Below, in pieces: positions 5,518 through 63,629 of a stretch of DNA of 64,000 nucleotides. How positions within the stretch are numbered: the first letter of the stretch is position 1; every line of letters begins with the position of its first letter. Source of the stretch: Vairimorpha necatrix (taxonomy: Eukaryota); the NCBI GenBank assembly GCA_036630325.1, contig CP142734.1, forward strand, positions 868,001 through 932,000, given 5' to 3'. The notes beneath the pieces were generated by a model, which was not told the origin of the DNA, did not search any database, and saw nothing but the letters and a program-made list of their open reading frames with translations. The translations under genes and the position numbers were made by a program.

Positions 5518-7530
5518 TGTAGGGGTTAGAACCCCTTGTAAATAAATGGTTAACATAGCGAACACATGGATGAACGGGGAAGCAAGAGAGTTCCGTAGTC
5601 AAGAGGCTAGAACATTAGAGAAAGAGGCAATTAGAATAAAAAAGAGATTAATGTTGGTATCTAAGGTTTTAAAAAATTGAGTGGAAAAATGTTATGGATT
5701 TTGCCTTCTTCTATTTACAGGATTATATTTTTGTGACGAAAGGAGAGCTGGGAAGAAATTTATGGAGTCTTACAAAGAACTGCAAGATTTTAGAGAGAGG
5801 TAGAAGAAAGACAAGTAATGTATAAAGAGATTGGAGATGGAGTGTATAAAGGGATTAGGGATGAAGTCTTTAACGAGATTAGGGATGAAAGAAAAGAGAA
5901 TCTTAAATTGTATAAGAAAAGAAGAAAAATCACAAAATGTTTTATATTTAAGAAAGCAGTCACTACGCTAGAGAATGTCATGAAAGTGCAGCTGGTCGAG
6001 AAAAGGAGAAAATCGAAAAGGAACTTGTTTTAGAGAAAGAACCTGTTGTCAAAGATGGAGGGAAAGGATTATAAAAATTAAATAAGTTAGAACAATTAAT
6101 TGACTAGTATCCTACAGTTTTTAAAGAATCAGAAGAAAAGATAAAATATCTCACATAGGGGAAGTGTAAATAAATACTAAACAAGGTGAAAAGGGGGCAG
6201 AACGTGTTATTCTACCTTAGGGAGTAATTTAAAATTACTTGATAAAGTTGAAAAAAGAGGGATTACAAGACGAACAGAAGTGCGTGGGGGTGTCCTATAA
6301 AAGCACTTTAAACCCCAAACAAGAATGTAAGATTAGTAAGTATTTTGAAAGCGTTTGACGATTTGGTTAAAAAGGACCCGTACGCTTGTCGTCAATTAGA
6401 CATATTATGAAGCCTCGCAGGTTTCGAAGGTATTTACAGTTATCGACTTAAGGTAAGGCTCTATCATATTGAGGAGCATCATAAGCACAAGACAGCATTT
6501 GAAGTGAATGTACGAGTATACAAATGGAATATATGATCATGGGGCTTGAGAATTCGCCTTAAATAATGTAGAGAGTTATGAACAAAATTTTAGACGAAAT
6601 CAGTGGTAAAGGCATAAGGTAAAGATGGATGATATAGTTGTTCATAGTAAAGACGTAAGAGTGCATGGCGAGTTACTAAGAGGATAAATAGAAAGTTTGA
6701 AGAGTTTGGGTTGTAAGTAAATCAACAAAAATACAATACAAAAAAGATAAGGTGATGTTGTTGGGAGTAATAATCATGGTGGGGCCATGGGACTGAATGA
6801 TACGAAAAAACAGGAGACACTAGAGTATAGAAAACCTGAGAATTTTAGATAGTTAAGAAGATTTTTAGTACTTACTGTTGGTTTAGAAACTTTATTGCTA
6901 TCTATGTGTATAGAACAGCAAGGCTTGCTGAGACTTTTAAGAAAGATGTTAAACGGAATTGGACGGAGGATATGGAAGGCGCTTCAAGTATATGAAGCAA
7001 GGCTTGAGGGATAATGAAAAGTTTAAGATTCTTAATGAAAAAAGCTATTTAGAGTAAGAATTGATGCGTATGATAAGGGGATAGAAGCAATTCTACTACA
7101 AGAAAATATAGAAGGGATGGATTCCTATCCTAGGGGGATCGAAAATGTTGACTCCTACATAGAGACGATATACGATAAGTTAGAAGAATATGTTGAAGGT
7201 GTGGAATAAAGAAGTTTTGAAGTGATTTGAGAGGAAAAAATTCCATTTGAATACGGAACATAAAGCGTTGGCAATGATCAGGAATAACCCGTACTTCAAC
7301 AATAACAGAATAAACAGATGAATAAAACAGATACAAGTATTTGTCAAAACAATAGAATATGTAAAAGAGAGTTGATGGCAGACGCAGATGCGTTGAGTAG
7401 ACAATATGATCAGGTAGAAGTTTTGGATAGACAGAAAGAAAAGGACAATAAGAGAAAAAAAAAGTAATTGAAAAACAAATATTAGGTAAAAAAATAAACA
7501 TATTTGTGATAAATAGGAAACATACAACAT
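5518..7530 (+). mobile_element. Decayed, 3'-truncated copy of mini-LTR Gypsy family 1
   Basis: 38-bp LTR at 5518-5555 (TGTAGGGGTTAGAACCCCTTGTAAATAAATGGTTAACA) followed by PBS-like TAGCGAACACA. It is colinear with the reverse complement of 11635-14709 through gag, RT and RNase H, with many stops and frameshifts. It ends before the integrase. Confidence 0.9.
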
Positions 7531-11367: not shown

Positions 11368-11634
11368 ATCAAAATACCATATAATAAACGTAAAAAACAC
11401 CCTATTTTTTATCAACTGATTTTTTTAATATTTGTTTTCTTCAAATCTTCTCAGCTGTACAAGAGCTGAATAAAGGGGAAAAGTTATATAGTTTCTCTTA
11501 TAGTAGAAAAATATGGTGTCATGCTCATGTTTTCAAAAAGGATTTTTGACAAAGCCCCAATTTAAACATAAAAATTGTTTGTAAATAAAGATATATTTTG
11601 CGTTTTTATTTTGATATCTAACTCAAGCATATAA

Positions 11635-11672
11635 TGTTAACCATTTATTTATTAAGGGTTCTAAACCCTACA
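11635..11672 (-). repeat. 3' LTR (38 bp) of family 1 element
   Basis: TGTAGGGTTTAGAACCCTTAATAAATAAATGGTTAACA on the minus strand. It contains the ORF stop codon and AATAAA. Confidence 0.9.
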
Positions 11673-14600
11673 TCCCCCCTCCAGACGGGTAGTCTCTCCA
11701 TCTTCTAAACAACTCTTCCTTATCTCTTTCAAATCATAATGCCTCTTTTTAACAATTTTACCATCCAGTAGTCTCACAATATATGAATCATTTTCACTTA
11801 TAGCTACGATCCTTCCGCGACCCGTGAATCTTCCCTTGTCTGTTTTCGCACGTGTACCTAAATTTTCTCTCCTAGCGATTCTTACCTCTTGGCCTACTGT
11901 AAATGTCTCTCTGTGTCTTCTCTTGAACCGACCAGCATATTTTCCATTTTCATCATTTTCAATTATAACTTCAGCAGTTTGATCTCTCCACGCTTCCATC
12001 GGCGTACATTTTATTGCTGTATGTAGTGTATTATTATATCCTTTGATTGCTCTTTCTATCTTTTCAGAAATATTCCCATCATTTTGCTTTATCAATGTCT
12101 CTCTTATAGTTCTGATGCATCTCTCGATTCTACCATTACTCCTATGAGCTTCTAAGCCCACTTTCCTATGTTTAATATCATTAATACTACACCATTCTTT
12201 AAATCTATTACTTACAAACTCTTTTCCGTTGTCTGTCACATATTCCTCTGGAAATCCATCTTCCCTTATCCACTTTTGTAATACCTCTATAACTTCACTA
12301 CTCTCTTTACATCTCAAATTCGAACCCCACAACCTTCTAGTAAAGTAATCAATACCCAGTAACACATACCTATTCTCTCCACCTATGTCCATTAAATCCA
12401 ACGCCACTTTCTCCAATTTCTTTCTAGTTACTACGAAATCACATCCTCCTGTGTTTTTCCTATTGTTAATCCCACATATTTCACAATTCTTAATTACCTT
12501 ATTAATATGATCTTTCATACCAGGCCAATACCATCTTTGTTTAATGTTATAATAAGTGCCTTTGACACCTCTATGGTTTAACTCCTCATGTACTCTTGTT
12601 ATTTCATGTTCTCTACTATCTAGGCTCAATATCTCTTTCACCTCACCTGTGGAAAATTCCCAATACTGTTTACCGTCCTTTTCTTTAATATGTTTCTGCT
12701 TTTTTCCTAAAATTTGTTTTTCGATCACTTCTTTTCTCCTGTTGTCCTTTTCTTTTTGTTCATCCGAAACTTCTACCTGATCATACTGCCTGCTTAACGC
12801 ATCTGCATCTGTCATCAACTCCCCTTTCACATACTCTATTGTAAAGTCAAACTCTTGTATCTGTTCTACCCATCTGTTTATTCTGTTATTATTGAAGTAT
12901 GGCTTATTTCTGATCTCTACTAATGCTTTATGATCCGTCATCAAATGAAATTTCCTTCCTCTCAAATCACTTTCAAACTTCTTTATTCCAAAAAACACCG
13001 CCAACATCTCCTTCTCACTTATCGTATATCTTCGCTCGGTAGGAGTCAACATTTTCGATGCCCATTGTATCGGAATCCACTCACCCTCTTTATTTTCTTG
13101 TAATAGAATTGCTCCGATCCCCGTATCACACGCATCAGTTCTTACTCTAAATAGCTTTTTTCCGTCCGGAATCTTCAACTTTTTCATATCTCTCAAGCCT
13201 TGCTTCATATCCTCAAAAGCTCTTTCCATATCCTCCGTCCAATTCCACTTAACATCTTTCTTTAAAGCCTCAGTAAGCCTTACTGTTCTATACGCATAGT
13301 TGGGAATAAAGTCTCTAAACCAACCAGTTAGTCCTAAAAATCTTCTTAACTCTCTAACATTCTCAGGTTTTCTATATTCCAATGTCTCCTGCTTTTTAAT
13401 CTCATTCGGTCCCATGACCTCCCCATTAATTGTTACTCCCAGCAACATCACCTCATCTTTTTTGTATTGTATCTTTGTTTGGTTTATTCTCAACCCACAC
13501 TCTTTAAACTTTTTAATTACCCTCTCTAGTAACTCGTCATGCACTCTTACGTCTTTACCATGAATAACTATATCATCCATATATACTTCCACGCCTTTAC
13601 CTCTGAATTCATCTAAAACTCTGTTCATTACTCTCTGCATTATATGAGGCGAATTCTTAAACCCCATAACCATACTATTCCATTCGTATACTCGACCATT
13701 CACTTCAAATGCTGTTTTGTGCTTATGGTGCTCCTCAATCTCAATATGATAAAACCCTTCTTTTAAGTCGATAACCGTAAATACTTTTGACCCCTGTGTG
13801 GCTCTCATAATATCCTTAATTAACGGTAGTGAGTACGGGTCCTTGTCAACCAAATCGTTTAACGCCATCAAATTGCTTACCAATCTTACGTCCCCATTTG
13901 GTTTTTCAAGTGCTCTTATTGGACTCCTCCACTCACTTTTGGAACGTCTTATAACCCCTCTATTTTCCAACTTATTCAAGTACTCCTCAAATTTCACCCT
14001 AAGGTAGTATGGCACATTCTGCCCTCTTTTCACAACCTTTTCACCTTGCTTAGTATTTATTGGACACTTCTCTCCTGTGAGATATTTTATCTTTTCTTCT
14101 GATTCTTTAAAAACTTCCGGATACTTTTCAATTAAATTTTCTAACTTATTTACTGTTTTACATCTTTTCCCTTCATTGTTGATAATTGGTTCTTTCTGTA
14201 AAACTTGTTCCTTTTTAATTTTATATTTTTCCCTACCAGCTACACTTTCATGACATTCTCTAGCGTAATGCCCTTCTTTCTTACATATAAAACATTTTGT
14301 AGTTTCTCTGATTTCTCTTCTTTTCCTATACATCCTAAGATTTTCTTTTCTTTCGCCCCTAAACTCTTTCAACACTTTATCCATAATCTCTTTAATCATT
14401 TCTTGTCTTTCTTCTGACTCTCTCTCAAATTCTGCTCCTTTTTGTAAGCCTTTATAAATTTCCTCCCAACTGCTCCTTCCGTCACAAAAATTTTCAAAAA
14501 TATAATCCTGCAAGTTCGCAGATGCCAAATCCATAACATCTTTCCACTCAACTTTCTCAACTTTCAATATTAACTTTAGTCTCTTATCTATCCTAATTGC

Positions 14601-14681
14601 CTCTTTCTCTAATGTTCTAGTCTCTTGACTACGGGACTCTCTTGTTTCCCTGTTCATCCTTGTGTTCGCCATGTTAACCAT
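11661..14681 (-). CDS. Single polyprotein: short Gag-like region with CCHC knuckle, reverse transcriptase, RNase H, integrase; no recognisable protease
   Basis: CFICKKEGHYAREC knuckle. RT motifs VIDLKEGFYHI, MGFKNSP and YMDD. RNase H motifs TDAC, EKEML, TDH and DALSR. Integrase motifs HEELNH..CEIC, DLMD, TDNGKEF and SNGRIER. The RT-RH-IN order is Gypsy-type. Confidence 0.95.
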   Translation of the reverse strand: MVNMANTRMNRETRESRSQETRTLEKEAIRIDKRLKLILKVEKVEWKDVMDLASANLQDYIFENFCDGRSSWEEIYKGLQKGAEFERESEERQEMIKEIMDKVLKEFRGERKENLRMYRKRREIRETTKCFICKKEGHYARECHESVAGREKYKIKKEQVLQKEPIINNEGKRCKTVNKLENLIEKYPEVFKESEEKIKYLTGEKCPINTKQGEKVVKRGQNVPYYLRVKFEEYLNKLENRGVIRRSKSEWRSPIRALEKPNGDVRLVSNLMALNDLVDKDPYSLPLIKDIMRATQGSKVFTVIDLKEGFYHIEIEEHHKHKTAFEVNGRVYEWNSMVMGFKNSPHIMQRVMNRVLDEFRGKGVEVYMDDIVIHGKDVRVHDELLERVIKKFKECGLRINQTKIQYKKDEVMLLGVTINGEVMGPNEIKKQETLEYRKPENVRELRRFLGLTGWFRDFIPNYAYRTVRLTEALKKDVKWNWTEDMERAFEDMKQGLRDMKKLKIPDGKKLFRVRTDACDTGIGAILLQENKEGEWIPIQWASKMLTPTERRYTISEKEMLAVFFGIKKFESDLRGRKFHLMTDHKALVEIRNKPYFNNNRINRWVEQIQEFDFTIEYVKGELMTDADALSRQYDQVEVSDEQKEKDNRRKEVIEKQILGKKQKHIKEKDGKQYWEFSTGEVKEILSLDSREHEITRVHEELNHRGVKGTYYNIKQRWYWPGMKDHINKVIKNCEICGINNRKNTGGCDFVVTRKKLEKVALDLMDIGGENRYVLLGIDYFTRRLWGSNLRCKESSEVIEVLQKWIREDGFPEEYVTDNGKEFVSNRFKEWCSINDIKHRKVGLEAHRSNGRIERCIRTIRETLIKQNDGNISEKIERAIKGYNNTLHTAIKCTPMEAWRDQTAEVIIENDENGKYAGRFKRRHRETFTVGQEVRIARRENLGTRAKTDKGRFTGRGRIVAISENDSYIVRLLDGKIVKKRHYDLKEIRKSCLEDGETTRLEGGCRV

Positions 14682-14709
14682 TTATTTATTAAGGGTTCTA
14701 AACCCTACA
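14672..14709 (-). repeat. 5' LTR (38 bp) of family 1 element
   Basis: Identical to 11635-11672. It contains a CCC motif, a 6-bp hairpin and the ORF ATG at 14681. Confidence 0.9.
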
Positions 14710-15257
14710 TATAATATGTTGAAGGAGTTAACAAGCATAGGGGGTTTATTTATTAAATATTATAAAGACACCAACTTATTATTTTGTTTTATGTGTATAC
14801 ATGTTTAAGATTAGTAATGTTTTCACAACAAGGATCTTGATTAACTTCAATACAATTAATAATCTATAGAAATTATTAAATTATCTGTATAGATTAATAA
14901 GTACAAAATATTGTTGATTACGACTTTGCAAGTTTTCATTTAGTACTTACAATTGATAATTTTTGGAAAGCTGTCCATAATTGAATAAACATTATATGTA
15001 AATACAACAAATATCTGACTTTTTTAGCTATAAAAGATTCTTATTCCATGTTTTATTTTTTAAAATGGCTTTGTTTTTAATGTATTTAAAGTATTACTTT
15101 AAAGTTAATTATTGCTGTTTCTCTAATAAAACGTGACTTTGTATCAAAAATGTCAGTACTTTTCGATGATATATTGTAGAACAGTGCCAGAAAAATTCAC
15201 CGAAAAATTAAAATATATATTTTTCATAGGGAAATTTATATATTTAATAAAAATTTT

Positions 15258-16425
15258 GGCGCTACTAGGAAAATCGCCCCCCCCCCCCACTAAAAAAAAA
15301 TAATTGAAAATTTATGGAATTTTTATCAGATAACTATGCATTTTTGTTATTGTAGAGAAAAGCACGAAGAATTGAACATTTTTTACATTGGCAATGTCTC
15401 TTACGCCAAGAAAAAATTTCTAAAACTTTAGCGATACGGTCATGATTTAATCCACTTCTTTTTCTATAATCCTGTTTTAAGTGGGACTTTAAATTTTCAA
15501 TCTGATTTGTATGTCCTCCCTTGCTGTTTACAAATCATTTGCTATGATTTACTATCTCATGCTCAGATCCAAAATTGGCCACTGCTTTAGGGTATGATGG
15601 GTATTCATCAGTAACAAGAATAGTTCCAGGAAGTAAATGGGGTTTAAACGCTTCTAGTAAAGTTTCATGCTTTCTGTTAGAAATTAATGAAACAAAAAAA
15701 ATAGTTTCATCACCTTCTACAACTCCTCCAAGTATCCACTGTATATTAGGAGTATCGTCGTGTAGAGATGACGGAATTTCAATCACTAAGCCATTGCATA
15801 TTGCAGTTTCATCGACCTGTACCCTTGTGTTTTCTCCCCCTATCTGTTCTATATCGGAAGGAGTCTCGCTTATAATGTCAATTAGAATGTTTTTAAATTC
15901 AATGTACGTCGACTCGGCTATTTTACAAAAATTGATAGCTTGATAATTTGAGTAAGAAAAGATCCAACAATATAAACACCTCAGAATCTTTTTGAATTCG
16001 ATAGTCAATTCATTAAATTTTGTGCTTTTTTTCAAACTACATTTTCTTTTGCACTTTTTTATTGTACATCTGTACCCCTTCCATAATAAATGAAGAAACA
16101 CTAGCAATTGACATGTTTCCATGACATGATTTTGAGACACATGGAATGGTAGACTTTATTATTCCCAATTCTACCAAAAGGGCAATTGCGAGATCATTAT
16201 TTTGGAAATAGGATTCCAAAGATCAAGTTCTCCTACCTTTTCCAGTATTCTTCCTAACATGAAGGGTATGAAAAATGTGAAAAAAAGACCATTGCTTTGA
16301 AAATCGCCCCCCCCCAGAAAAAAATATGCAAGAAAGTACAAAATCGAGAGATTTTTTTAATTTTAAAGAAATGATAATTTTTTTCTATGCGTGTTTTAGT
16401 AGGGAGCCATTTTCCTAGTAGCGCC
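15258..16425 (-). mobile_element. Merlin (IS1016/ISXO2-like DDE) DNA transposon, pseudogenised
   Basis: TIR GGCGCTACTAGGAAAAT and 8-bp TSD AAAATTTT. Transposase motifs VQVDET, WILGGV, VTDEYPSY, VNHS and HTNQIE. It has frameshifts and a stop at 15535. Confidence 0.92.
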
Positions 16426-16457: not shown

Positions 16458-19400
16458 TGTATCTATTTATCATAATTGGGGATCAAAAATATCAGAATAT
16501 ATAACATCCCCCTCCAAGAAGGTTAGTCTCCTACATCACCATTAACCCTAAGCAGATTTTTCAAGTCATAATGTCTCTTTTTAACATATCGCCCATTAGT
16601 AGCTTCACAACATACGAGTCCCCAGGGCATACCACCACTATAATACCTTCGTCTAAAAACCTTCACTTTTAATATTTATTTCATCCTTTGATGTTTTCTT
16701 TCTTAGCTATCCTTACTCGTTGTCCTTCAATAAACCGCTCTCTATATCTTCTAACAAATCTTTTACTGTAGTCTCCTTCTGGTCCATTTAATATCATCAC
16801 TTTCCTCGTATTGTCTTTTACCGCTTCATTGAAAGTACTTCTTATACCTTCGTGGTAACTATTATTATAAATTTTAAAGCTTTCCATCACTATGTCTTCA
16901 AAACTCGCCGTCTCTTTACTCATTTTCAATATTAGCTCTCTAAGCGTTCCTAAAACTCTTTCAACTCTACCATTGCTTCTATGAGACTCGACACTCACCT
17001 TATTATGGGTAATATCCAATTTTCTACACAAATCCTTCAAGTCAACATTATCAAATTCCCTCCCATTATCCGTTATTATTTCCTCCGGCCTCCTGCCATT
17101 TATACATAAGTTCTCAATAAATTGGGCCACAGAGGATCTCTTCTTATCGTATAATACACATCCCCACGCTATCCTCGTATGGTAATCTATCGCAACTAAT
17201 ACATATTTGCCCTTATCTCTAAAATCAATTAAATCTAACGCTACTTTTTCTAAATACCTGCTTGTAGCAACAAAATCACATCCTCCAGACCTTTTCCTAT
17301 TGTAAATTTGACACTCCTCGCACCTTTTTATCATTTTCCCTATATCTTCTTTTATTCCTGGCCAATAATAATCAAACTTCATGGCATAATACATGCTTCA
17401 TAGTCCTCTGTGTCCATGCTCTTCATGATAACGTCTCATAAGCTCATCTCTTTCTTTTATTTTAGGAATCAATGCTTTCCTCCCCGAATCAAAATTCCAG
17501 TATTCTTTACCGTCTATTGTCTCGACGTGCTTCAACCATTTACCTTCAATTTGACGCTCACTTCTTTTTTTATCATTTCGTTTCTTGGATCAACCTCCTC
17601 GTGTATCCTACTCAAAGCATCCGCCACGACCATATGTTCTGGTTTCCTGTAATCTATTTCAAAGTCAAATTCTTGGATCTTTTCAATCCATCGATTAATT
17701 CTATTATTATTAAAACACGGCTTTCTTATTATTTCCGCCAATGCTTTGTGATCCGTTTCTACTTTAAATTTTCGTCCTCTTAACTCATACTCAAATTTCT
17801 TTATTCCCCAATATATGGCATACATTTCCTTTTCACTTATACCATATCTAGTTTCCGTCGGGGTGAATTTCTTCGATGCCCATTGTACTGGCACCCACTC
17901 TTCTTTATCATTCTTCTGCATGAGTACTGCACCCATTCCTATATTGCTCGCGTCAGTTCTTAATAAAAATTCCTTGTCATAGTTTACAATTTTCAACTTA
18001 CTCATACTTCTTAACGTTTCCTTCATATTTTCGAACTCTTTATTCGGGTCATCAGTCCAATTCAATACTTTACTTTTACCTTTCAAACTTTCAGTCATAT
18101 ATAATGTCTTCTCCGCATAATTATTAATAAATCCTTGAAACCATCCACTCAGTCCTAAAAATCTTCTTATGTCCGACACATTCTGCGGCGTTGGAAACTC
18201 TAGTGCTTCGTTTTTCTTGATTTCAGACGGCATCATATCATCTCCGTTTAATGTAACTCCCAATAACTTGACTTCCTTTTGGCAATACTGAATTCTCCTT
18301 GAATTTATCCGCATATTATTCCGTTCTAACAATTTCATCGCTTCTACAAATAATTTATCATGTTCTTTTCTAGTCTTCGCATGAATCACTATATCATCCA
18401 TGTATACTTCTATTTTACCACCCAAATCGTTTTTCAAAAATCTTATTCATAATTCTCTGCATGATCTGAGGCGAGTTTTTAAACCCCATGACCACACTAT
18501 TCCACTCATATACTATCTTATCAAACTCAAACGCGGTTTTATGCTTATCTTGCTCTTCTATTTGATTCCTTAAAAGGCCTCCTTAAGATCTATAACACTG
18601 AAAAATACTGACCCTTGCGTGTTCCTTATGATATCCCTAATGTTCATAATTCATAAGGGTCTTTCTCCACTAAATCATTTAATGCCATGAGATTGCTAAC
18701 CAGTCTTATACTTCCATCTGGCTTAACTAAAGCTTTAATCGGATTTCTCCATTCCGACGTCGATCTTCTTATGACATTCCTTGTAACTAACCTCTGAATA
18801 TATTTTCTCAGCTCTTCTTTATGCGCTTGTGGCACCTGCTGACCTTTCCTTACAACTTTCTTGCCTTCTTCAGTTATTATTCTGCATTTTTCAATTTTAC
18901 AATATCTTATTTTCTCTTCTTCGTTGTCTATAACGTTCCTAAACCTCTTTCTCATGTCTTCTAATGTTAGACCGTTCTTTTCTACCTCATCATAACATCT
19001 TTTATTTCTTGTCTTCCATTCTTGTTTCTTTTGTCTTTTAGCATCCCATGTGTTCCTATAAGTTCTTTCATCACAGCTACTGCTACCTTCTTTTTTAATC
19101 TTCTCACATTCGTCTTTATTCTTAAGATTTCTATATCTATAATAACACATCAGACTCTTATGTCCCATTCTTCAACAATTATAACATCTCATTGTTCCTC
19201 TCTTTTCAAATATTCTTTCCGCTCTACTAATATTTCTAATCTCCTCTGCCACCATCTTTGTGACCTACTCAATCATCCGTAATCTCATATCCCTTTCTCC
19301 TGTACTTTAACCAATTCCTCTAATTTGGTTTCCATAACTTTCCAATGATCTCCAATCTAAATATTCTTAACCATAAATTCTTTCAACTCATCAGTTCCAA

Positions 19401-19595
19401 GATCAAAAATCTCCTTCTTTACATTCTTCTCAAAATCATAATCAGACAATACTAGTCCATAAACAATCCTCTTAAACTCTTCTAATAACCTTCTGGCCTC
19501 TTGACCACAGCCAACACTTGTTAGCTCACGATTCGGTATCGCCCCATGTATTTATTTATCATAATTGGAAATCAAAAATATAAGCATATATAACA
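16458..19595 (-). mobile_element. Full-length, decayed miniature Ty3/Gypsy element, family 2 (49-bp LTRs)
   Basis: LTRs at 16458-16506 and 19547-19595 (5 mismatches), TSD TATTC, PBS TGGGGCGATACCG and PPT GGAGGGGGA. Frameshifted gag-knuckle, RT, RNase H and integrase frames correspond to ORFs 18644, 17532 and 16681. Confidence 0.93.
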
Positions 19596-33567: not shown

Positions 33568-35770
33568 ATGAATGTTTTGTTCTCACTTGGTCTTTGGATT
33601 GCAACAATTGAATTAACAAAAGAAAGACCGCCTGGTTCCAAACGAAAATTTAGTGATATTACAGAAGATTCGACCGAAGAACGGGAAAAAAAGATCAAAC
33701 GACGTTCTTTATCACTAGAAGAATTGGATTTTACCTCTGTATACACGGTAACCGTAAATTCGCCTGTAGGCGAATTTACGGTTTTTCGCCAAAAATTAAA
33801 ATTTGCTCGTTTTTCGCCAAAAAAATATAAAAAAAAATTTATTGGTATTAAGAAAAAAATAAAAGATTTGAAAAGCTTTATTATAATTTTAATTAAAATT
33901 TATTGGTTATAAAAAAAGCATTTATAATAAAAATAGGTTTATTGAATTAACTTATTCGCATTTGAAATTCACGTGTTGCAGTAAAGCATTCATGTACTCT
34001 TCACGAGAATAATGTTTATAATTTTTAACGATTATTCTAATTTTTTCCTCCGCTTTTTGGGTTTTTTTTAGCTTCAAATAATCCTTTTTTATAACGTTTT
34101 AGATTATATATATCCATTTCTTCACAATCGAGTATTCTTGAAATAAAAAGAGCGATATTTGGATTTCTTGTCTCCATCCTCTTGTTTATGGTTCTATTCC
34201 AGCTTTCTGCATTGTTAGAAGTCCGAGGAATTTCATTTTTTACCCTATCAAGTACATTCCAAAAATTTATATTGGCGACAGCTCTCCCGCCGTTATCTTC
34301 TCTAGTTACATGGGAAACTAAATAATTATTTTCAAAGTATAACTGAAAGTTAGCTGTGGTTGTAATTGAATTATCTTTTATAAATTTCTTAATATCTTCA
34401 TAAAAAACCAGAACATCTCGTATTGGCACAAAAGCTAATCTAAGAATCTTTTTGAATACTAGATTATAGTTAGAATCGTTTTTAAACTTTTCTATGTCCC
34501 CCATTGCCCCGACTCTTTTATAGGCTGCCTGCCCAAGATGAAACAAGCATCCATTACAGTTTGCTCCAGGGAAAGATATTCGTAATGCATTGACCAATCC
34601 TCTCTCAAAATCAGTCACAAAGTTCTTAACATTCATGTAACTAATTCCTTGCATTTATCGAAGGCTCTAGAATATGACCTTTCACTTTTTCCCTTGAGTA
34701 AAATATAAATGTATGGAAAACTTTTGCCAAATATATGTCCATGAAAGACGACAATTTGGTAAAATCCTTGAGGAGAAGATTTAAACGTTCCATCGACAAC
34801 GAACGTATCTATTTTTTCAATCATACTTTTTTTGAATTCTGAAAAAAAATATTATAAATCTATCATTATCCTGCATACCACTATCAAATCTAAGAAAACG
34901 ATTTTTTTAGAATCTACTTGCAGGACTTCGGGTATATCCATAATGCAACCAGTTATAAATCCGAGTCTTGAATTTCTTGTTCGTTTGATTGTATCTCTTA
35001 AATATTCTATGGAAGGCATTTTAGTAATATCTAAGCTGGTTGACAATGCTGGGAGTTGTTTTTTTATTATTTCTAATGAGTTTTCATTACTTGTAGCAAC
35101 TTGTTCTTTTATTTTTTTGATTGTTTTTAAACATGCATTTCTCAGGTACTGGTTCATGTGAATGAATAACTTTTTTAACGATTTCGTTTTGTTCATTCAT
35201 TATAATGGCACCTCTACAAGACCTATTACTGCACCTCCATCGCATAGTGCCGTCCTTATTGTAGTCTAAAGTGTATATCTGATCTTCATAGATAAGATTT
35301 TGCCCTCCACGTTGACCTTTAAAAATTTCAAAGTTGTCGTTCATTTTTTTAAGGGTAGATTTTCGGCGAAAAAAAAGGAAAAATTTTATGGGCAAAATTT
35401 TTGGCGAAAAACAACCATTTTGAACTTTTGGCGAAAAACCGTAAATTCGCCTGTAGGCGAATTTACGGGTACCCCTGTATACAGACAATGGGAATTGATT
35501 TGTGAACTTGAAAAAGAACTAATACAAAGGTTTAGCCCATATCTTAAAGATATGCCCCCAGATAAGATATCATTGGATGAAAGTGAAATGAAAAAAATAC
35601 CAAAAGAATTTCACGATAAAATAACAATGAGTGCGATCTTTGAATTTGTAAGACGAACAAATTTGTCAGAGGGAGGATTTTGTGAAGAATAGCTAAGACT
35701 TAAAAAATAGACACGTCAAAAGATGTCAAACTTGGTTAAAAAGAAACTAAGAGAACATACACGCGATTAA
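33568..35770 (+). pseudogene. Small secreted family member 3, interrupted by a MULE
   Basis: The MNVLFSLGLWIATIE start resembles 28353 and 30501. Removing 33746-35474 plus one TSD fuses ...FTSVY to RQWELI...FSPYLKDMPPDKISLDESEMKKIPKE in frame. There are later in-frame TAG stops. Confidence 0.8.
33746..35474 (-). mobile_element. Mutator-like (MULE) transposon with FLYWCH-type zinc finger, frameshifted
   Basis: TIR (C/G)GGTA(A/C)CCGTAAATTCGCC and 9-bp TSD CTGTATACA. Motifs WRCSNRSC..HSH, VVDGTF, VTDFERGL..NA, GCLFHL.QA and RTSNNAESWN. Confidence 0.93.
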
Positions 35771-39831: not shown

Positions 39832-40401
39832 TTACAATTTACTTATTATCTTGAATACATTCTGTTTCTTTCTACTCTTTTTATCCTCTGTCTCTATTAA
39901 TTCTTTAACTTGTTTCTTATAATTGTCATTAGGCACTTCTCTAAACATCTTTGCGGCATCAACATTGGCAGGAGAATCGGGATTGGGATTATCAAGTAAA
40001 ATGACCATAGACAAACACACGACTCTAATATTCTGAACAGGAGACCACCTGTCTTCAGGCGCCCCGCAGCCCAGTGGGCCGGGCGAGTCCTCCTCTAAAA
40101 TACTAATACAGACTTTACCATCCTCGTAAATATTCGGGTGGAACATTTTAGTCTTAAAAACAAACTTAGGTGGGTGATGGGGGTAATCTTCAGGAAAAGT
40201 GATCTCTGCTTCTATTATTTTGCCTTTGTAGAGCGAATTTTCATCATAGAGACGGAAATAGACATCCCATGTCTTGTAAATTGTTTTTCCATTTATGGTC
40301 CTAGGGAATGCCATGAAAATATGATCAGTCTCTTTTTTGAGAAGTTTCTCTTCGTTGACGAGTCTTTTTAAAGCTGCAGCTGATAGTTTATTTGAACTCA
40401 T
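39832..40401 (-). CDS. Ubiquitin-conjugating enzyme E2, Ubc7/Cdc34 type
   Basis: FPEDYP..PP, HPNIYEDGKVCISIL with the catalytic Cys, an acidic insertion before RWSPVQ, and PNPDSPAN.DAA. Confidence 0.92.
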   Translation of the reverse strand: MSSNKLSAAALKRLVNEEKLLKKETDHIFMAFPRTINGKTIYKTWDVYFRLYDENSLYKGKIIEAEITFPEDYPHHPPKFVFKTKMFHPNIYEDGKVCISILEEDSPGPLGCGAPEDRWSPVQNIRVVCLSMVILLDNPNPDSPANVDAAKMFREVPNDNYKKQVKELIETEDKKSRKKQNVFKIISKL

Positions 40402-40512: not shown

Positions 40513-41523
40513 TTATGAATCTGTCGCATTGCTTATTCCTCCTTCTGTGATCGCATATGTCGCCTCTGATTCTGCATAATCTGGAGAATCATAAATCTTT
40601 GCCACCCTTGTCTCCCCTCGACCTTTCCTTAAAGAAATCCTTGTTGTAGACGCATGGGCCAAGACATGCCCACCTATGGGCTTCTTAGGGTCAGCCACAA
40701 AGGTCATCGCCCCTGATGGATCGGCCATCATCTGATTCGTTATAAACACTGCTATGTTAAACTCCTCAGAAATATTTATCAATTTAGACAAGAATTGATT
40801 GAGTTTTTGTTGTCTTTCTCCTAATTCACCTCTTCCACTAAAATCTACTCTAAATAATGAAATTATTGAATCTACTACTAATATTTTATACTTGGGATCT
40901 TCTGCAAATTTAACTGTAAGATTTTGGACTAACTCATTCTGGTGCTCACTATTGTATGCCCTAGCATAAATAACATTATCTAAGGCTTCATCTGGGTCCA
41001 AATTAAACCTAACTGCTATTTCTCTTAACCTTTCTGGTCTAAATGTGCCCTCAGTGTCTATAAAAGCAGCCTTACCATTGGCACCCCCTAATTCTTCAGA
41101 AAGTTGTACTGTAATACACATTGTAGTAGCCAACTGCGTCTTACCGGTACGGAACTCACCAAATACTTCAGTAATACTCATTGTTTGTATACCTCCTCCT
41201 AATAAAGCATCGAAATCTGAACTACCTGTACTTATTCTGTACAATTGAGCTCTTTTTACTGCGTAAGCTGACGCAGTCATAAAATCAACATTGAGAAGTT
41301 TATTCACCACATCTTTCATCTTCTCAATTTTGATATCACTAAGGCCTTTAATTTTTACTAAAGATTTCCTTGGTGTCATGAGAATCCCTTTTAATGTGCA
41401 AATACCTGATGCCCTTAATTTGTTTATGTCTTGGAGAGATATTCCTGAATTGACAAGAATATCTAAATTCCCTTGTTCTTCGTCTGCAGATTTCTGCATG
41501 TGGGAAGAGTCGGTTTCTAACAT
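40513..41523 (-). CDS. DMC1: Meiotic recombinase Dmc1
   Basis: Walker A GEFRTGKT, DFSGRGELGERQQKL and GGHVLAHASTTRISLRKGRG (Dmc1-type rather than Rad51 GGNIIAH). The likely start is ATG 41523 (MLETD), giving 336 aa. Confidence 0.92.
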   Translation of the reverse strand: MLETDSSHMQKSADEEQGNLDILVNSGISLQDINKLRASGICTLKGILMTPRKSLVKIKGLSDIKIEKMKDVVNKLLNVDFMTASAYAVKRAQLYRISTGSSDFDALLGGGIQTMSITEVFGEFRTGKTQLATTMCITVQLSEELGGANGKAAFIDTEGTFRPERLREIAVRFNLDPDEALDNVIYARAYNSEHQNELVQNLTVKFAEDPKYKILVVDSIISLFRVDFSGRGELGERQQKLNQFLSKLINISEEFNIAVFITNQMMADPSGAMTFVADPKKPIGGHVLAHASTTRISLRKGRGETRVAKIYDSPDYAESEATYAITEGGISNATDS

Positions 41524-46475: not shown

Positions 46476-49400
46476 TGTGATATATTTGTATAATTTCTAT
46501 TCCCTATTAAGACAAATAAAGACATAAGGGCGATACCGAATCGAAAGTTTAAAAGTGTGGACTGTGGTCTAGAGGCCAAAAAGCTATTAAAGGAAGTTAG
46601 AAGAATTATCTATAGGTTAGAGATGGAGGAATTAGAATTCAGTATGTGGAAGCAGAGAATATTTATCGAAGGACGTGAAGAAATAAAAAATTCTATGGTA
46701 GAAAGAATTAGTAAAGAGGACGAATATTATAAAATAATCGAGAAATTGGAGGAGGAAATGTTTAGAAAAGAAAGAAGAAGAAAATAGGAGAGAACTTATG
46801 GAGGCTATAAGTGAGAATGTTATAGAAAGCGTGAGAAAGAAATGCAACAGAAAGATTTAGTTTTAGGAATCCAGTAAAGATTTATGAAGGAATAGGAATT
46901 GTTTTAATTGTAACAAATTTGGCCATATGGCTAGATCTGCAATGTAGGAAGGAAAAATAACGGGAAAATAATAAAAGTATAATCCGTACTTAAAGTTAGA
47001 CGAAAGTTGCAGTCGTAGTAGCAGTAATGATAGAAAAAAATATAAACCAAGTGCAAATACAAAACGAATTAAGTTAAAGCAATATAATAATAGTGATAGA
47101 AGACATAAAGAAAGAATATATGCGAGCAATAAAGAGACGAAAAGAAGATTACTGAAGAGGGAATTTACGTTGGAAGATCTCAAAGCGGAATATGAAGAAG
47201 TTTTTAAACAAGGAGATGAGGTTATAAGTTATTGTACATTAGAGAAGTGTAAGATAGATACTCCAGAGGGTAAGAAGATAGTCAGAAAGGGACAGACGAT
47301 CCCACAGGCTTTGATCAAACAGACTGAGGAATATATTAATGATTTAGAAAATAGAAAAATTATAAGAAGATTGTCATCTTAATTTACAAAACTCAATAAG
47401 AGCGATACTTACCCCACGGTATAGTAAGAGTAGTTAGTAACTTTATAGGGTTAAATGCTTTAGTCGAGAAAGACTCGTATGAGCTAACGAATATCAGGAA
47501 AATAATAAGAGCTACCCAAAAGTCGATAATATTTACTGTGGCTGATTGCAAAGAAGCATTTTGCCATTTTGAAATCGAAGAAAAAGATAAACATAATATG
47601 GCGTTGAATTTAATAAAAAGTTTACGAATGGAATAGTATGGTGATGGGATACAAAAATTCCCCACAGATACTACAGCGAACGATGAAAACGATTTTTGAG
47701 GATTGCACAGAAAAAGGCGTTGAGGTATACATGGACGATATAGTTATACATGCCAACAAATTACGTATACACGATGAACTAGTAAGAGAGGTTTTAGAAA
47801 GAATTCAGAGAAATAAAATATTAAAATACGGGTTAGACAAGCGGAAGTAAAACTATTAGGTGTGACGCCGAATGGAACAGACATGAAGGCCGACGAAATA
47901 AAGAAAAATGGAGCCTTGGAGTATCCAGATCCATAAACTTTGACGGAATTAAGAAGATTTCTAGGATTTACTGGGTGGTTCATACCATTATAAAAGATTA
48001 TGACGGGTTGACGTTGAAAATGACGGATAGTTTGAAGAAAAATGGCAATTCATGGAAATTAACGGAAGAGATGAAAAAGGAATTTACTGGAATACAAAAA
48101 TGTGTTAAGAAATATGGGAAGACTAAGATTGTCGGACTATAATAAGGAGTTCATACTAAGAACAGACGCTAGCAATTTGAGATTGGATGCGGTGTTACTT
48201 CAGAAGAATGAGAGTGGAGAATTGTTGCTATACAATAGGTATCTAAAAAGCTAACACCTACCGAAATAAGATATGGAATATCAGAAAAGGAAATGCTTGC
48301 GATATATTGGGTCATTGATAAATTTAAATACGAGTTAAGAGGTAGAAAATTCAAGATAGAAACGGATCACAAAACACTGGTGGAGATAAGAAACAAACCG
48401 TTCTTCAATAATAACAGAATAAATTTACAATCGAAAATATACATGAATATGTTTTTAGTATTGAATATAAAAAACATGATGATATGGTGGCAGCAGATGC
48501 GTTGAGTCGAATAAACATGGAAAAGGATATTAATCAAATGAAAAATAAAGAGCGAACAATCAAGCAAATAGAAGGTAAATGGAAAGCAATATTGGCAATT
48601 TGACTCAGGACGTAAAGTTGAAATACCACCTGAGAATATAAGGAGACAATTAATCCAAGAATATCATGAAAAAGTAGGCCACAGATGCATGACAAGTGTT
48701 TATTATGGAATGAGAGAAGAATACTATTGGCCAGGAGTAAAAAAAGAAATAAACGAGGTTAAAAACAGTGTCAGAAATGCCAGATATATAACAGAAAAAA
48801 TATGGGTGGTCGTGAATTTGTAGATACGTCGAGATACCTAGAGAAGGTTGCATTAGATTTGATAGACTTCAGAAATGAGAAGAAATATGCCTTAGTTGCT
48901 ATAATTTATTTTACACGTAGAGTATGGGGAGTAGTTATAAATAACAAGTCAAGTAATAATGTTGTTGGATATTAAAAAAAATTATGTGAGCAAGGGAAGA
49001 ACCCGGAAGAAAGCATTACAAATAACAAAAAAGAGTTTATTAACTTGGAATTTAGAAAATTATGCAGAGATCTGGACATAATACACGACAAGTAAGTATA
49101 GAAGCGCATATAAGTAACGAAAAAGTAGAGCGTGTTATAGATACTCAGAGAGAAAATATTATAAAGTCGGATGCGGAAACTTTTGAAGGTAAAAAGTGCG
49201 ACAAATATAATCAGAGCTATCATACAGGAATAAAATGTACACCAATAGATGCGACCGAAGATAAAACTGGAGACGTAATGCTTGTAAATAGCCCTATAGG
49301 GAAATATTGCAATACGTTTAGAAAAGGAAAGATTGAAAAATTTAGTAAAGAACAATTGATAAGAATATCTAAACGTTTTTTTTCGCAGGAGTTAATAAGT

Positions 49401-62357: not shown

Positions 62358-63629
62358 GGTTAAGTTCTCGACTTACCCCCCCCCCACCCCTAAAAAAAAT
62401 AAAAAAAGGGGAAAAAATAAAAAAAAATAAAAAAAGGGGAAAAAATAAAAAAAAATAAAAAAAGGGGAAAAAATAAAAAAAAATAAAAAAACGTTTAATT
62501 CTCGACTTAACCCCCCTTACCCCCCAAAAAAAACAAAAAAAATTATTCCACAATTGTAAAGTCTATTTCAGGAATAATATCATAAGCTACAATACTAAAA
62601 TTACCTATTTGAAAAAATTCTAACATTTTATCCAATAGATTTTCACGATATATTAATTTGAATCTGTTAATGTAAATCTTTCTTACAAGATTCATAATAG
62701 TACCATGACTAGTTCCTCCTTTTCTTAGTTCTCTTTTAATAACCGACCACATTCCCTCTATAGTCTGAGTATGCGCACCAGTTATATTATCAACAAAATT
62801 TTGGCTGTGATTCACAGTCAAATGTAGATACTCATATTCTACACAGATTGTTTGAATATCACAATATCCACGCCAACAATCTGTCACAATTGTGGTCCCC
62901 GGAGCAATTTTTCTTGTAATTAATTCAACAAGAGTAGCTCTTGTTCTATTTTCTACGATCTCAAAGAAAAAAGAATTTGCATCCCCTCTCACAACGCCTC
63001 CAACTGCCCATACTTGATATTGAAGAACCCTTCCCGCATGGTTTTTACTTTTTACAAGTAAAGTTTCATCAATTTCAACAATACAACCGACGCCGCCAAT
63101 CGTTTGATTGTTTATATATGTTGAATAAGAGACGTACACGGCGTTATTAAAACGCGTAAACCATCTTGATACCGTACATTTACCTATATCAAGTTCTAAC
63201 GTGGAGGCCAAATTACTTGAACCCTTTACCCATTCGCTAAGCAATATTAAAAGATCCTCAATAGGCAATTTTGAGTTCTTAAAAACGCTTTGTTTCATTA
63301 TGGTTCCTTTGTTAGAACATTTTTTACCATCACGCCTTGAATAACAACGATAGTTTTCAGTGTTGGTCCGATTTTGAGTCATTGGTATATTGCATTTATT
63401 GCACATAGGGACCCTCAAAATGTTTTTTGCAATTAAAAATTGCATTAACTCATTTTTTTTATAGATGAGTTTTCTAAATTCTTTAATTCTCATTATGGGT
63501 CAAATTTTTTATTTCTTTTATTTTTTCCCCTTTTTTTATTTTTTCCCCTTTTTTTTATTTTTCCCCCCTTTTTTATTTTTTTTTATTTTTTTTAGGGGTG
63601 GGGGGGGGGGGTAAGTCGAGAACTTAACC
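62358..63629 (-). mobile_element. Intact Merlin DNA transposon
   Basis: Perfect TIR GGTTAAGTTCTCGACTTACCCC and 8-bp TSD GAAACTTA. Subterminal tandem A/G-rich units occur at both ends and the transposase is uninterrupted. Confidence 0.95.
62543..63493 (-). CDS. Merlin/ISXO2-like DDE transposase
   Basis: N-terminal CxxC..C..C zinc ribbon, VEIDET, WAVGGV, VTDCWRGY, VNHS and HTQTIEGMWS. Confidence 0.93.
   Translation of the reverse strand: MRIKEFRKLIYKKNELMQFLIAKNILRVPMCNKCNIPMTQNRTNTENYRCYSRRDGKKCSNKGTIMKQSVFKNSKLPIEDLLILLSEWVKGSSNLASTLELDIGKCTVSRWFTRFNNAVYVSYSTYINNQTIGGVGCIVEIDETLLVKSKNHAGRVLQYQVWAVGGVVRGDANSFFFEIVENRTRATLVELITRKIAPGTTIVTDCWRGYCDIQTICVEYEYLHLTVNHSQNFVDNITGAHTQTIEGMWSVIKRELRKGGTSHGTIMNLVRKIYINRFKLIYRENLLDKMLEFFQIGNFSIVAYDIIPEIDFTIVE

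Follow-up and report, generated by a model that had tools for sequence, protein, structure and literature searches.

Within a 64,000-nucleotide stretch of the Vairimorpha necatrix genome (contig CP142734.1, positions 868,001 to 932,000 of the forward strand; hereafter the window), positions 11635-14709 hold a long terminal repeat (LTR) retrotransposon of 3075 bp whose sense strand is the minus strand. This element is probably an intact member of a microsporidian LTR retrotransposon lineage that is derived from Ty3/gypsy and has been stripped to about 3.1 kb, and it encodes no aspartic protease. By descent it is classed as a derived, protease-less offshoot of Ty3/gypsy (Metaviridae), not as a canonical member. 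Its ends and cis-acting features, in window coordinates, are as follows.

11635..11672, minus strand: 3' LTR, 38 bp, TG..CA
14672..14709, minus strand: 5' LTR, 38 bp, same sequence as the 3' LTR, containing the first in-frame ATG of the open reading frame (ORF)
11630..11634, no strand: copy of the target-site duplication (TSD) on the element's 3' side, TATAA on the plus strand and TTATA in the element sense
14710..14714, no strand: TSD copy on the element's 5' side, TATAA
14658..14671, minus strand: putative primer-binding site (PBS) TGGCGAACACAAGG, adjoining the 5' LTR and starting with TGG
11673..11682, minus strand: polypurine tract (PPT) GGAGGGGGGA, inside the ORF and adjoining the upstream side of the 3' LTR

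A pattern search allowing three mismatches placed the 38-bp repeat at exactly two sites in the window, and 100 dinucleotide-preserving shuffles yielded 0 matches. The exact repeat runs to 40 nt, one flanking base on each side agreeing by chance. On the sense strand the LTR contains the stop codon TAG at positions 10-12, CCC at 15-17, AATAAATAAA at 20-29 and ATG at 29-31; a second in-frame ATG is made by the last A of the LTR and the TG of the PBS (CA/TGG junction). The putative PBS doubles as coding sequence for the conserved N-terminus MANT, and homologues begin with MANT (MANTR), the translated PBS. Self-priming of the Tf1 type was considered and dropped, since no complement of the PBS was seen in the LTR, by eye only.

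Almost the entire element is coding, the ORF occupying 3021 of its 3075 bases (98%), from the first ATG inside the 5' LTR to the stop codon TAG inside the 3' LTR. The encoded polyprotein comprises the following parts.

14681..11661, minus strand: single uninterrupted polyprotein ORF of 1006 amino acids, stop codon included in the coordinates
14301..14642, minus strand: all-helical Gag-like region, residues 14-127 (AlphaFold)
14253..14294, minus strand: single CCHC zinc knuckle, motif residues 130-143 (weak Pfam match at 129-144, E 0.0014)
13428..13907, minus strand: reverse transcriptase (RT) domain RVT_1, residues 259-418 (Pfam E 4e-31), YMDD present
12849..13241, minus strand: RNase H-like domain, residues 481-611 (RT_RNaseH 508-611, E 3e-30; RT_RNaseH_2 481-579, E 1e-27)
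12459..12614, minus strand: zinc-binding Integrase_H2C2, residues 690-741 (Pfam E 3e-14)
12165..12386, minus strand: integrase catalytic core rve, residues 766-839 (Pfam E 3e-10)

The order RT, RNase H, integrase is of the Ty3/gypsy type, the homologues are Ty3/gypsy-type polyproteins and the tree described below nests the query among them. Catalytic columns are invariant in 29 aligned relatives (YMDD, the RNase H TDA, and the integrase HHCC and D,D,E), and the Pfam scan of the polyprotein gave no match to a recombinase. The stretches left without a domain are residues 612-689 (about 78 amino acids) and about 100 amino acids at the C-terminus, the latter carrying integrase C-terminal motifs conserved in the family alignment. 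An earlier note on this DNA had described identical 38-bp TG..CA repeats, a TATAA TSD, a span of 3075 bp and one uninterrupted 1006-residue ORF; the repeat search and flank check bear out the repeats, the TSD and the span, and the ORF call on the minus strand confirms the reading frame.

The absence of a protease was examined by domain, profile and structure searches. The Pfam scan of the 1006-residue polyprotein returned no protease family even at E<=1. An AlphaFold model of residues 1-270, based on a 29-row alignment (mean predicted local distance difference test score, pLDDT, 77.5), is helical up to the knuckle and shows no beta domain ahead of RT. In this model the N-terminal helix of RT begins at about residue 177 and the knuckle ends at residue 143, leaving a gap of only about 33 residues. 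Compared with the PDB by Foldseek, the model had no match at E<=0.001; the top rows were N-terminal fragments of RT at E>=0.06. A custom protease hidden Markov model (HMM) was trained on 32 protease regions taken from homologues that are more distant, and of 16 proteins held out it detected 11 at E<1e-4. Its best value was E=0.54 in the query and 47 relatives among homologues P0001-P0049, the six-frame translation of the element with 200 bp of flank at either end gave nothing, and the best value over six frames of the whole 64-kb window was E=0.21. Within P0001-P0049 it matched only P0045 and P0046, both of which were in its training set. As a control, the first 335 residues of protein P0050, from the sister element L046, were modelled in the same manner. 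A beta domain (pLDDT 82-90) appeared around the DTG motif, and the Foldseek search of the PDB gave 54 matches at E<=0.001, with Ddi1 and retroviral proteases at the top. Because there is no room for the enzyme, no HMM match and no retropepsin fold, while the positive controls succeed, we conclude that the element encodes no aspartic protease. The earlier claim that none lies between knuckle and RT thus holds by Pfam, the custom HMM and AlphaFold/Foldseek, and the divergent protease fold suggested as a check on it was searched for there by HMM and model and not found.

It could still be argued that a protease is present in unrecognisable form, either of a non-retropepsin type or extremely divergent, within the N-terminal region, the linker between RNase H and integrase, or the C-terminus. 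Pfam protease models are weak in this lineage, missing P0050 entirely and detecting P0045, P0046 and P0054 only below threshold, and residues 163-176 and 200-219 of the AlphaFold model are of low confidence. However, the knuckle-to-RT distance is that of some 33 residues, the region before the knuckle is confidently helical, the lineage-specific HMM is negative over the full length and in six frames, and the only other room is in the two domain-free stretches of about 78 and about 100 residues, the second of which bears the integrase motifs. A hidden protease is accordingly regarded as exceedingly improbable.

About 128 residues precede the knuckle, in line with the short region of about 130 previously claimed ahead of a single knuckle, and the model renders them all-helical, with helices at residues 14-38, 46-52 and 55-65 and a long helix at 72-127 (pLDDT 88-96 over residues 21-140). 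The C-lobe of Arc (4x3x_A) aligned with Z 5.5 and a root-mean-square deviation of 3.1 over 63 residues, tied with unrelated helical bundles, and a wide structure comparison returned generic helical bundles at Z<=6. Features from the ESM Atlas placed Retrotrans_gag clusters at 0.84-0.86, under the 0.9 mark, and hhalign of the region against the Gag of the sister elements gave a probability of 1%. Judging from these models, the Gag-like region would resemble at best one capsid lobe. Prediction of two-copy self-association for residues 10-165 scored 0.00, which gives no support and is no evidence either way. An N-terminal search of 1.84 billion representatives produced 68 matches at E<=0.001, 9 of them at E<=1e-10; those covering the pre-knuckle region are short proteins of 45-210 amino acids with varied ends, most likely fragments, and the others cover the knuckle only. 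The pre-knuckle region evolves fast, with R17, S18, Q19, A53, L57, I61, W72 and R116 conserved or nearly so (P0122-P0130, P0139, P0169).

The element is not alone in its build. Three further copies, belonging to the same and to two other families, were recognized in the window.

5518..7504, plus strand: copy B, same family, old, degenerate and truncated, 80% nucleotide identity to element positions 1-2023
16458..19595, minus strand: element C, second family, degenerate, 3138 bp, 44-52% amino acid identity
46476..49621, plus strand: element D, third family, degenerate, 3146 bp, 35-40% amino acid identity

The homology of copy B begins precisely at the TG of the 38-bp LTR (5518-5555, 34 of 38 bases identical). 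Element C has 49-bp TG..CA LTRs (about 90% identical), a 5-bp TSD (GAATA) and TGG after the 5' LTR, and element D has 49-bp TG..CA LTRs (about 92% identical) and a 5-bp TSD (TATTA). Among public relatives, a metagenome contig (L004, 50% amino acid identity) carries a 3163-bp element with 39-bp LTRs and the TSD TTATA, and another relative (L001, 67%) shows a purine tract and a 38-bp TG..CA 3' LTR followed by unrelated flank. LTRs of 38-49 bp are thus found in three further window copies or families and two public relatives, and the four complete members of the lineage measure 3.1-3.2 kb. The positions of the TGG after the 5' LTR and of the purine tract before the 3' LTR are conserved in relatives; purine-rich tracts stand at the equivalent place in element C, L004, L008 and L001, and that of element D is degenerate. 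Elements C and D carry the same 16-nt putative PBS, GGGCGATACCGAATCG, right after the 5' LTR (19521-19546 and 46525-46550), which differs from TGGCGAACAC of the 3075-bp element; comparison of these sequences suggests that different primer RNAs may be used within one lineage.

The same organization recurs among the 120 protein homologues listed. In P0001-P0044, which form part of these, the distance from the knuckle to an RT anchor (knuckle and RT N-terminus included) is about 64-143 residues in nearly all knuckle-bearing proteins, P0035 having about 200, and the motif D[ST]G[ASC] is absent but for one low-complexity instance (P0009); clear motifs appear from P0046 on. Many relatives of about 1000 amino acids lie on contigs of 3.0-3.3 kb, and the closest named matches are from Nosema granulosis, Vairimorpha necatrix and Enteropsectra breve. 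In a quick IQ-TREE analysis of RT, RNase H and integrase (64 rows), the query falls in a clade of 40 rows with no detectable protease (Shimodaira-Hasegawa-like approximate likelihood ratio test, SH-aLRT, 99). The protease state is known for the 34 rows of this clade that have at least 100 residues before RT, the other 6 being N-terminally truncated; the four rows scored as lacking a protease outside the clade (P0048, P0051, P0053 and P0055) are N-terminally truncated as well. The neighbours of the clade, namely P0045 with P0046, the P0050/P0054 group and L008, carry proteases. Because a 40-row clade lacks a detectable protease and relatives share LTRs of 38-49 bp, the sequence comparisons support the view that the protease-less, short-LTR build is a property of a diversified lineage and not of a recent deletion derivative. 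The earlier note had held that the element is no deletion relic, a claim sustained at the level of the lineage by the tree, the window copies and the public relatives; protease-bearing parent copies with long LTRs, which it had named as the contrary case, were looked for, and no close one appeared among the 120 homologues listed.

The nearest protease-bearing relatives among these homologues are 36-38% identical to the element and have LTRs of 53-75 bp. Three elements of this kind were delimited.

L046 (protein P0050): 3364 bp, LTRs of 58 bp
L049: 3590 bp, LTRs of 75 bp
L008, contig positions 177-4856: 4679 bp, identical 53-bp LTRs, TSD GATGT, DSG protease, 27% identity

Like the 3075-bp element, the sister elements (L046/P0050, L049, P0045/P0046 and L008) have tiny LTRs, of the lengths just given for three of them, and in L046, L049 and L008 one ORF spans the element. 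The ORF of L046 and L049 starts at the LTR or at the LTR/PBS junction, that of L046 ends in the 3' LTR, and the LTRs of both contain CCC and AATAAA, as here. The sisters differ in having kept a retropepsin of about 100 amino acids (DTG or DSG motifs, HMM E<=1e-10, and a fold match for L046), in their length of 3.4-4.7 kb and in being only 27-38% identical to the element. Since these protease-bearing relatives also have tiny LTRs, shrinkage of the LTR seems, on this comparison, to be older than loss of the protease. L008 comes from a different, less AT-rich organism, and very short LTRs may therefore reach beyond microsporidia.

The sister elements raise the alternative that the polyprotein is cut in trans by the retropepsin of co-resident relatives of the P0045/P0046 or P0050 types, the protease-less lineage being a long-term parasite. 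Such sister lineages do exist and branch beside the protease-less clade, and one contaminated metagenome bin (G001) holds the protease-less L001 together with protease-bearing elements (L046, L049 and others). On the other hand, no protease-like sequence occurs in the 64-kb window despite its four lineage elements, the clade, with its 40 rows and identities as low as about 37-45%, is old and diverse, so that cleavage sites would need to track a foreign enzyme, and the closest potential donors show the low identity given above. We consider cleavage in trans rather improbable.

The contents of the LTR resemble the signals of host genes. According to Peyretaillade 2009 (PMC2803860), the 5' untranslated region of microsporidian mRNAs is shorter than 7 nt, a CCC-like motif shortly precedes the start codon, and AAUAAA stands near the stop codon. 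In the window, CCC(C) lies at most 15 nt upstream of ATG in 4 of 6 ORFs, and in the genes for the meiotic recombinase DMC1 and a ubiquitin-conjugating enzyme (UBC) AATAAA overlaps or directly follows the stop codon; CCC precedes the ATG in UBC but not in DMC1. The spacing from CCC to ATG in the LTR is 11 nt, the same as in the UBC gene. CCC followed by ATG within the LTR is also found in C, D, L004 and L049, and the CA/TGG junction making an ATG in the 3075-bp element, C, L004, L046 and L049. The LTR would thus act as a minimal host-type promoter and terminator. Transcription probably starts between LTR positions 18 and 28, as set by the CCC motif that precedes the in-LTR ATG by 11 nt, and the AATAAA within positions 20-29 is the probable signal for a 3' end that falls at the end of the LTR or just beyond it. 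For the first strand transfer the RNA would then have a terminal redundancy (R, or R plus U5) of no more than about 10-20 nt.

In the cycle that we propose, the minus strand would be started from a primer at TGGCGAACAC, which adjoins the LTR, and the plus strand from the PPT; integration of the cDNA by the integrase would duplicate 5 bp of the target. Gag and Pol would be made 1:1 as a single chain with no encoded retropepsin. Because the Gag-Pol ratio would be fixed at 1:1 and no protease is encoded, a closed capsid of free Gag appears unlikely. We tentatively prefer the reading that the polyprotein works uncleaved, as a small ribonucleoprotein (RNP) and not within a closed capsid shell; its cleavage by a host protease we regard as unlikely. 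That an entire integrase-bearing lineage replicates without a retropepsin or a closed capsid, by means of an uncleaved 1:1 Gag-knuckle-RT-RNase H-integrase RNP, a terminal redundancy of about 10-20 nt and an LTR of 38 bp, is possible and must be put forward with some doubt.

The element was compared with four public sequencing runs (X1-X4). In X1, word depth is 60-65 over the interior and about 0-8 in the flanking bins, contig depth not being a copy number, and contigs of 1665 and 1411 bp (with 4 and 3 differences) end inside the LTRs. One contig of X2 leaves the end of the LTR and enters a flank other than that of the window. Taken from contig sequence, these observations in X1 and X2 hint at multiple near-identical copies. 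Runs from four studies contain pieces matching the element at 99% identity or more, among them 11 of 13 in X3 and 6 of 6 in X4. The element had also been called recently inserted; the intact ORF and the public contigs of at least 99% identity speak for this part of the claim, and the identity of the two LTRs lends it little support, two identical 38-bp sequences being a weak clock that bounds divergence only to roughly <8% (arithmetic from length). The right flank at 14710-14780 is itself a high-depth repeat, and loose contig ends there are uninformative. Over 14710-14887 this flank is a high-depth repeat in X1 and X2 with several alternative upstream sequences, and the element may have inserted into another repeat.

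Several points weigh against an intact element that replicates without processing. Protease-defective retroviruses and Ty elements fail to replicate, and we accordingly know of no precedent among integrase-bearing elements for replication without processing. Nearly all gypsy elements of Nosema bombycis (Nbr) are stated to encode a protease in a passage of Gill et al. 2008 (PMC2474625), citing Xu et al. 2006; either these belong to the sister lineages that have a protease, or the domain was annotated by convention. No tRNA gene was found in the 64-kb window to supply a primer for the PBS. Runs X1-X4 were compared as contigs, with no transcript ends among them; X3 is a bat-gut metagenome, X4 a freshwater metagenome, and X1 may be the window's own sample. 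No contig in X1-X4 joins both flanks across the element as an empty site or insertion polymorphism would. Finally, 5 of the 15 differences among copies in the run contigs are synonymous (5 versus 10), compared with 19% expected at random, which is no clear sign of purifying selection.

The last of these figures bears on the possibility that the element only looks intact and is an inactive relic or has been domesticated, its ORF open by chance or kept for a host function. This view would fit a synonymous share that is not clearly raised, the poor resolution of a 38-bp LTR as a clock, and the degenerate state of three of the four lineage members in the window. It is difficult to reconcile, however, with an open frame of 3021 nt in DNA of about 30-36% GC that has kept all catalytic residues, with LTRs, TSD, PBS-like TGG and PPT that are all intact, or with the higher word depth of the interior, the contig breaks at the LTRs, the alternative flank and the near-identical pieces in the runs of four studies. 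A relic or domesticated copy is therefore judged very unlikely.

To our knowledge, the core of every integrase-bearing LTR retroelement and retrovirus is taken to include a protease, a capsid with two lobes and LTRs hundreds of bases long. Canonical Ty3/gypsy elements have LTRs of hundreds of bp and a total length of about 5 kb, compared with 38 bp and 3.1 kb here, and Tf1 has a single gag-pol ORF. With Ty3 and Tf1 (Metaviridae) the element shares the order of RT, RNase H, H2C2 and DDE integrase, the TG..CA ends, the 5-bp TSD and, next to the LTRs, a putative PBS starting with TGG and a purine tract in the PPT position; it differs from them in lacking a retropepsin and in having its Gag cut to about 128 helical residues and one knuckle. 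DIRS and Ngaro elements combine a Gag-like protein with RT and RNase H in the absence of an aspartic protease, and have a tyrosine recombinase and split or inverted repeats, whereas the present element has a DDE integrase, direct LTRs and a TSD. Gao et al. 2012 (PMC3281118) describe the SMARTs, non-coding and non-autonomous plant elements of 292 bp, as the smallest LTR elements and call their 85-bp LTRs very short. SMART/TRIM elements resemble the present one in their very short LTRs, TGT..ACA ends and 5-bp TSD; the element here, in contrast, encodes RT, RNase H and integrase in 1006 amino acids, and its LTRs are less than half of 85 bp.

Microsporidia-specific gypsy groups with a single polyprotein appear in passages of Parisot et al. 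2014 (PMC4202319), and the same point is repeated in part of a 2026 genome paper (PMC13174016). The groups of Parisot et al. agree with the present element in their microsporidian host, a fused Gag-Pol in a single ORF and the order RT, RNase H, integrase, as far as those passages describe them; the word 'protease' is absent from the main text and the passages give no LTR or element length, while the elements described here have LTRs of 38-49 bp and no protease. Our literature search retrieved no description of protease-less gypsy elements or of gypsy elements with LTRs below 50 bp, features that Xu et al. 2006 and the supplements of Parisot et al. 2014 may record.

The lineage would set a new lower bound, with a length of about 3.1 kb, a single protein and a terminal redundancy of perhaps 10-20 nt. 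If the uncleaved RNP reading is true, it would represent the smallest self-sufficient LTR retrotransposon design, and the protease and capsid maturation would be dispensable for the LTR/integrase cycle. It would also offer a natural system for asking whether Gag-Pol processing is essential. Programs that find LTRs have a default minimum length near 100 bp, at which such elements would be missed or their boundaries misplaced, and because of this the transposable element content, insertion dating and solo-LTR counts of microsporidian genomes may be biased.

Elements of this kind also end up in bacterial metagenome bins and, as 'bacterial' reverse transcriptases, in protein databases. The bin G001, labelled Clostridium sp., gave 31 retroelement polyprotein matches, including whole microsporidian-type elements (L001, L046-L060), and one of its proteins is even listed under bacterial WP_ and UniRef accessions, with the name 'reverse transcriptase family protein'. 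These matches have the look of AT-rich eukaryotic DNA that has contaminated a bacterial bin.

A small inverted repeat, AGGGTT..AACCCT, lies in the LTR (window 14692-14706) and reads GGGGTT..AACCCC in copy B (5521-5536), where both arms have changed. Its predicted folding energy is no better than that of shuffles (z 0.13 to -0.51), and the compensatory change in copy B is the sole point in favour of a hairpin. A scan of the window against Rfam matched no family. The window further contains intact, intronless genes for a DMC1/Rad51-family meiotic recombinase (40513-41523, minus strand) and the UBC mentioned above (39832-40401, minus strand), the host DMC1 being closest to those of Nosema granulosis (74%), Vairimorpha apis (73%) and other microsporidia. 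ISXO2/IS1595-like (Merlin-type) transposase ORFs and a fragment of a Mutator-like element (MULE) transposase (15535-16122, 62543-63493 and 34037-34654) add to a window rich in transposable elements.

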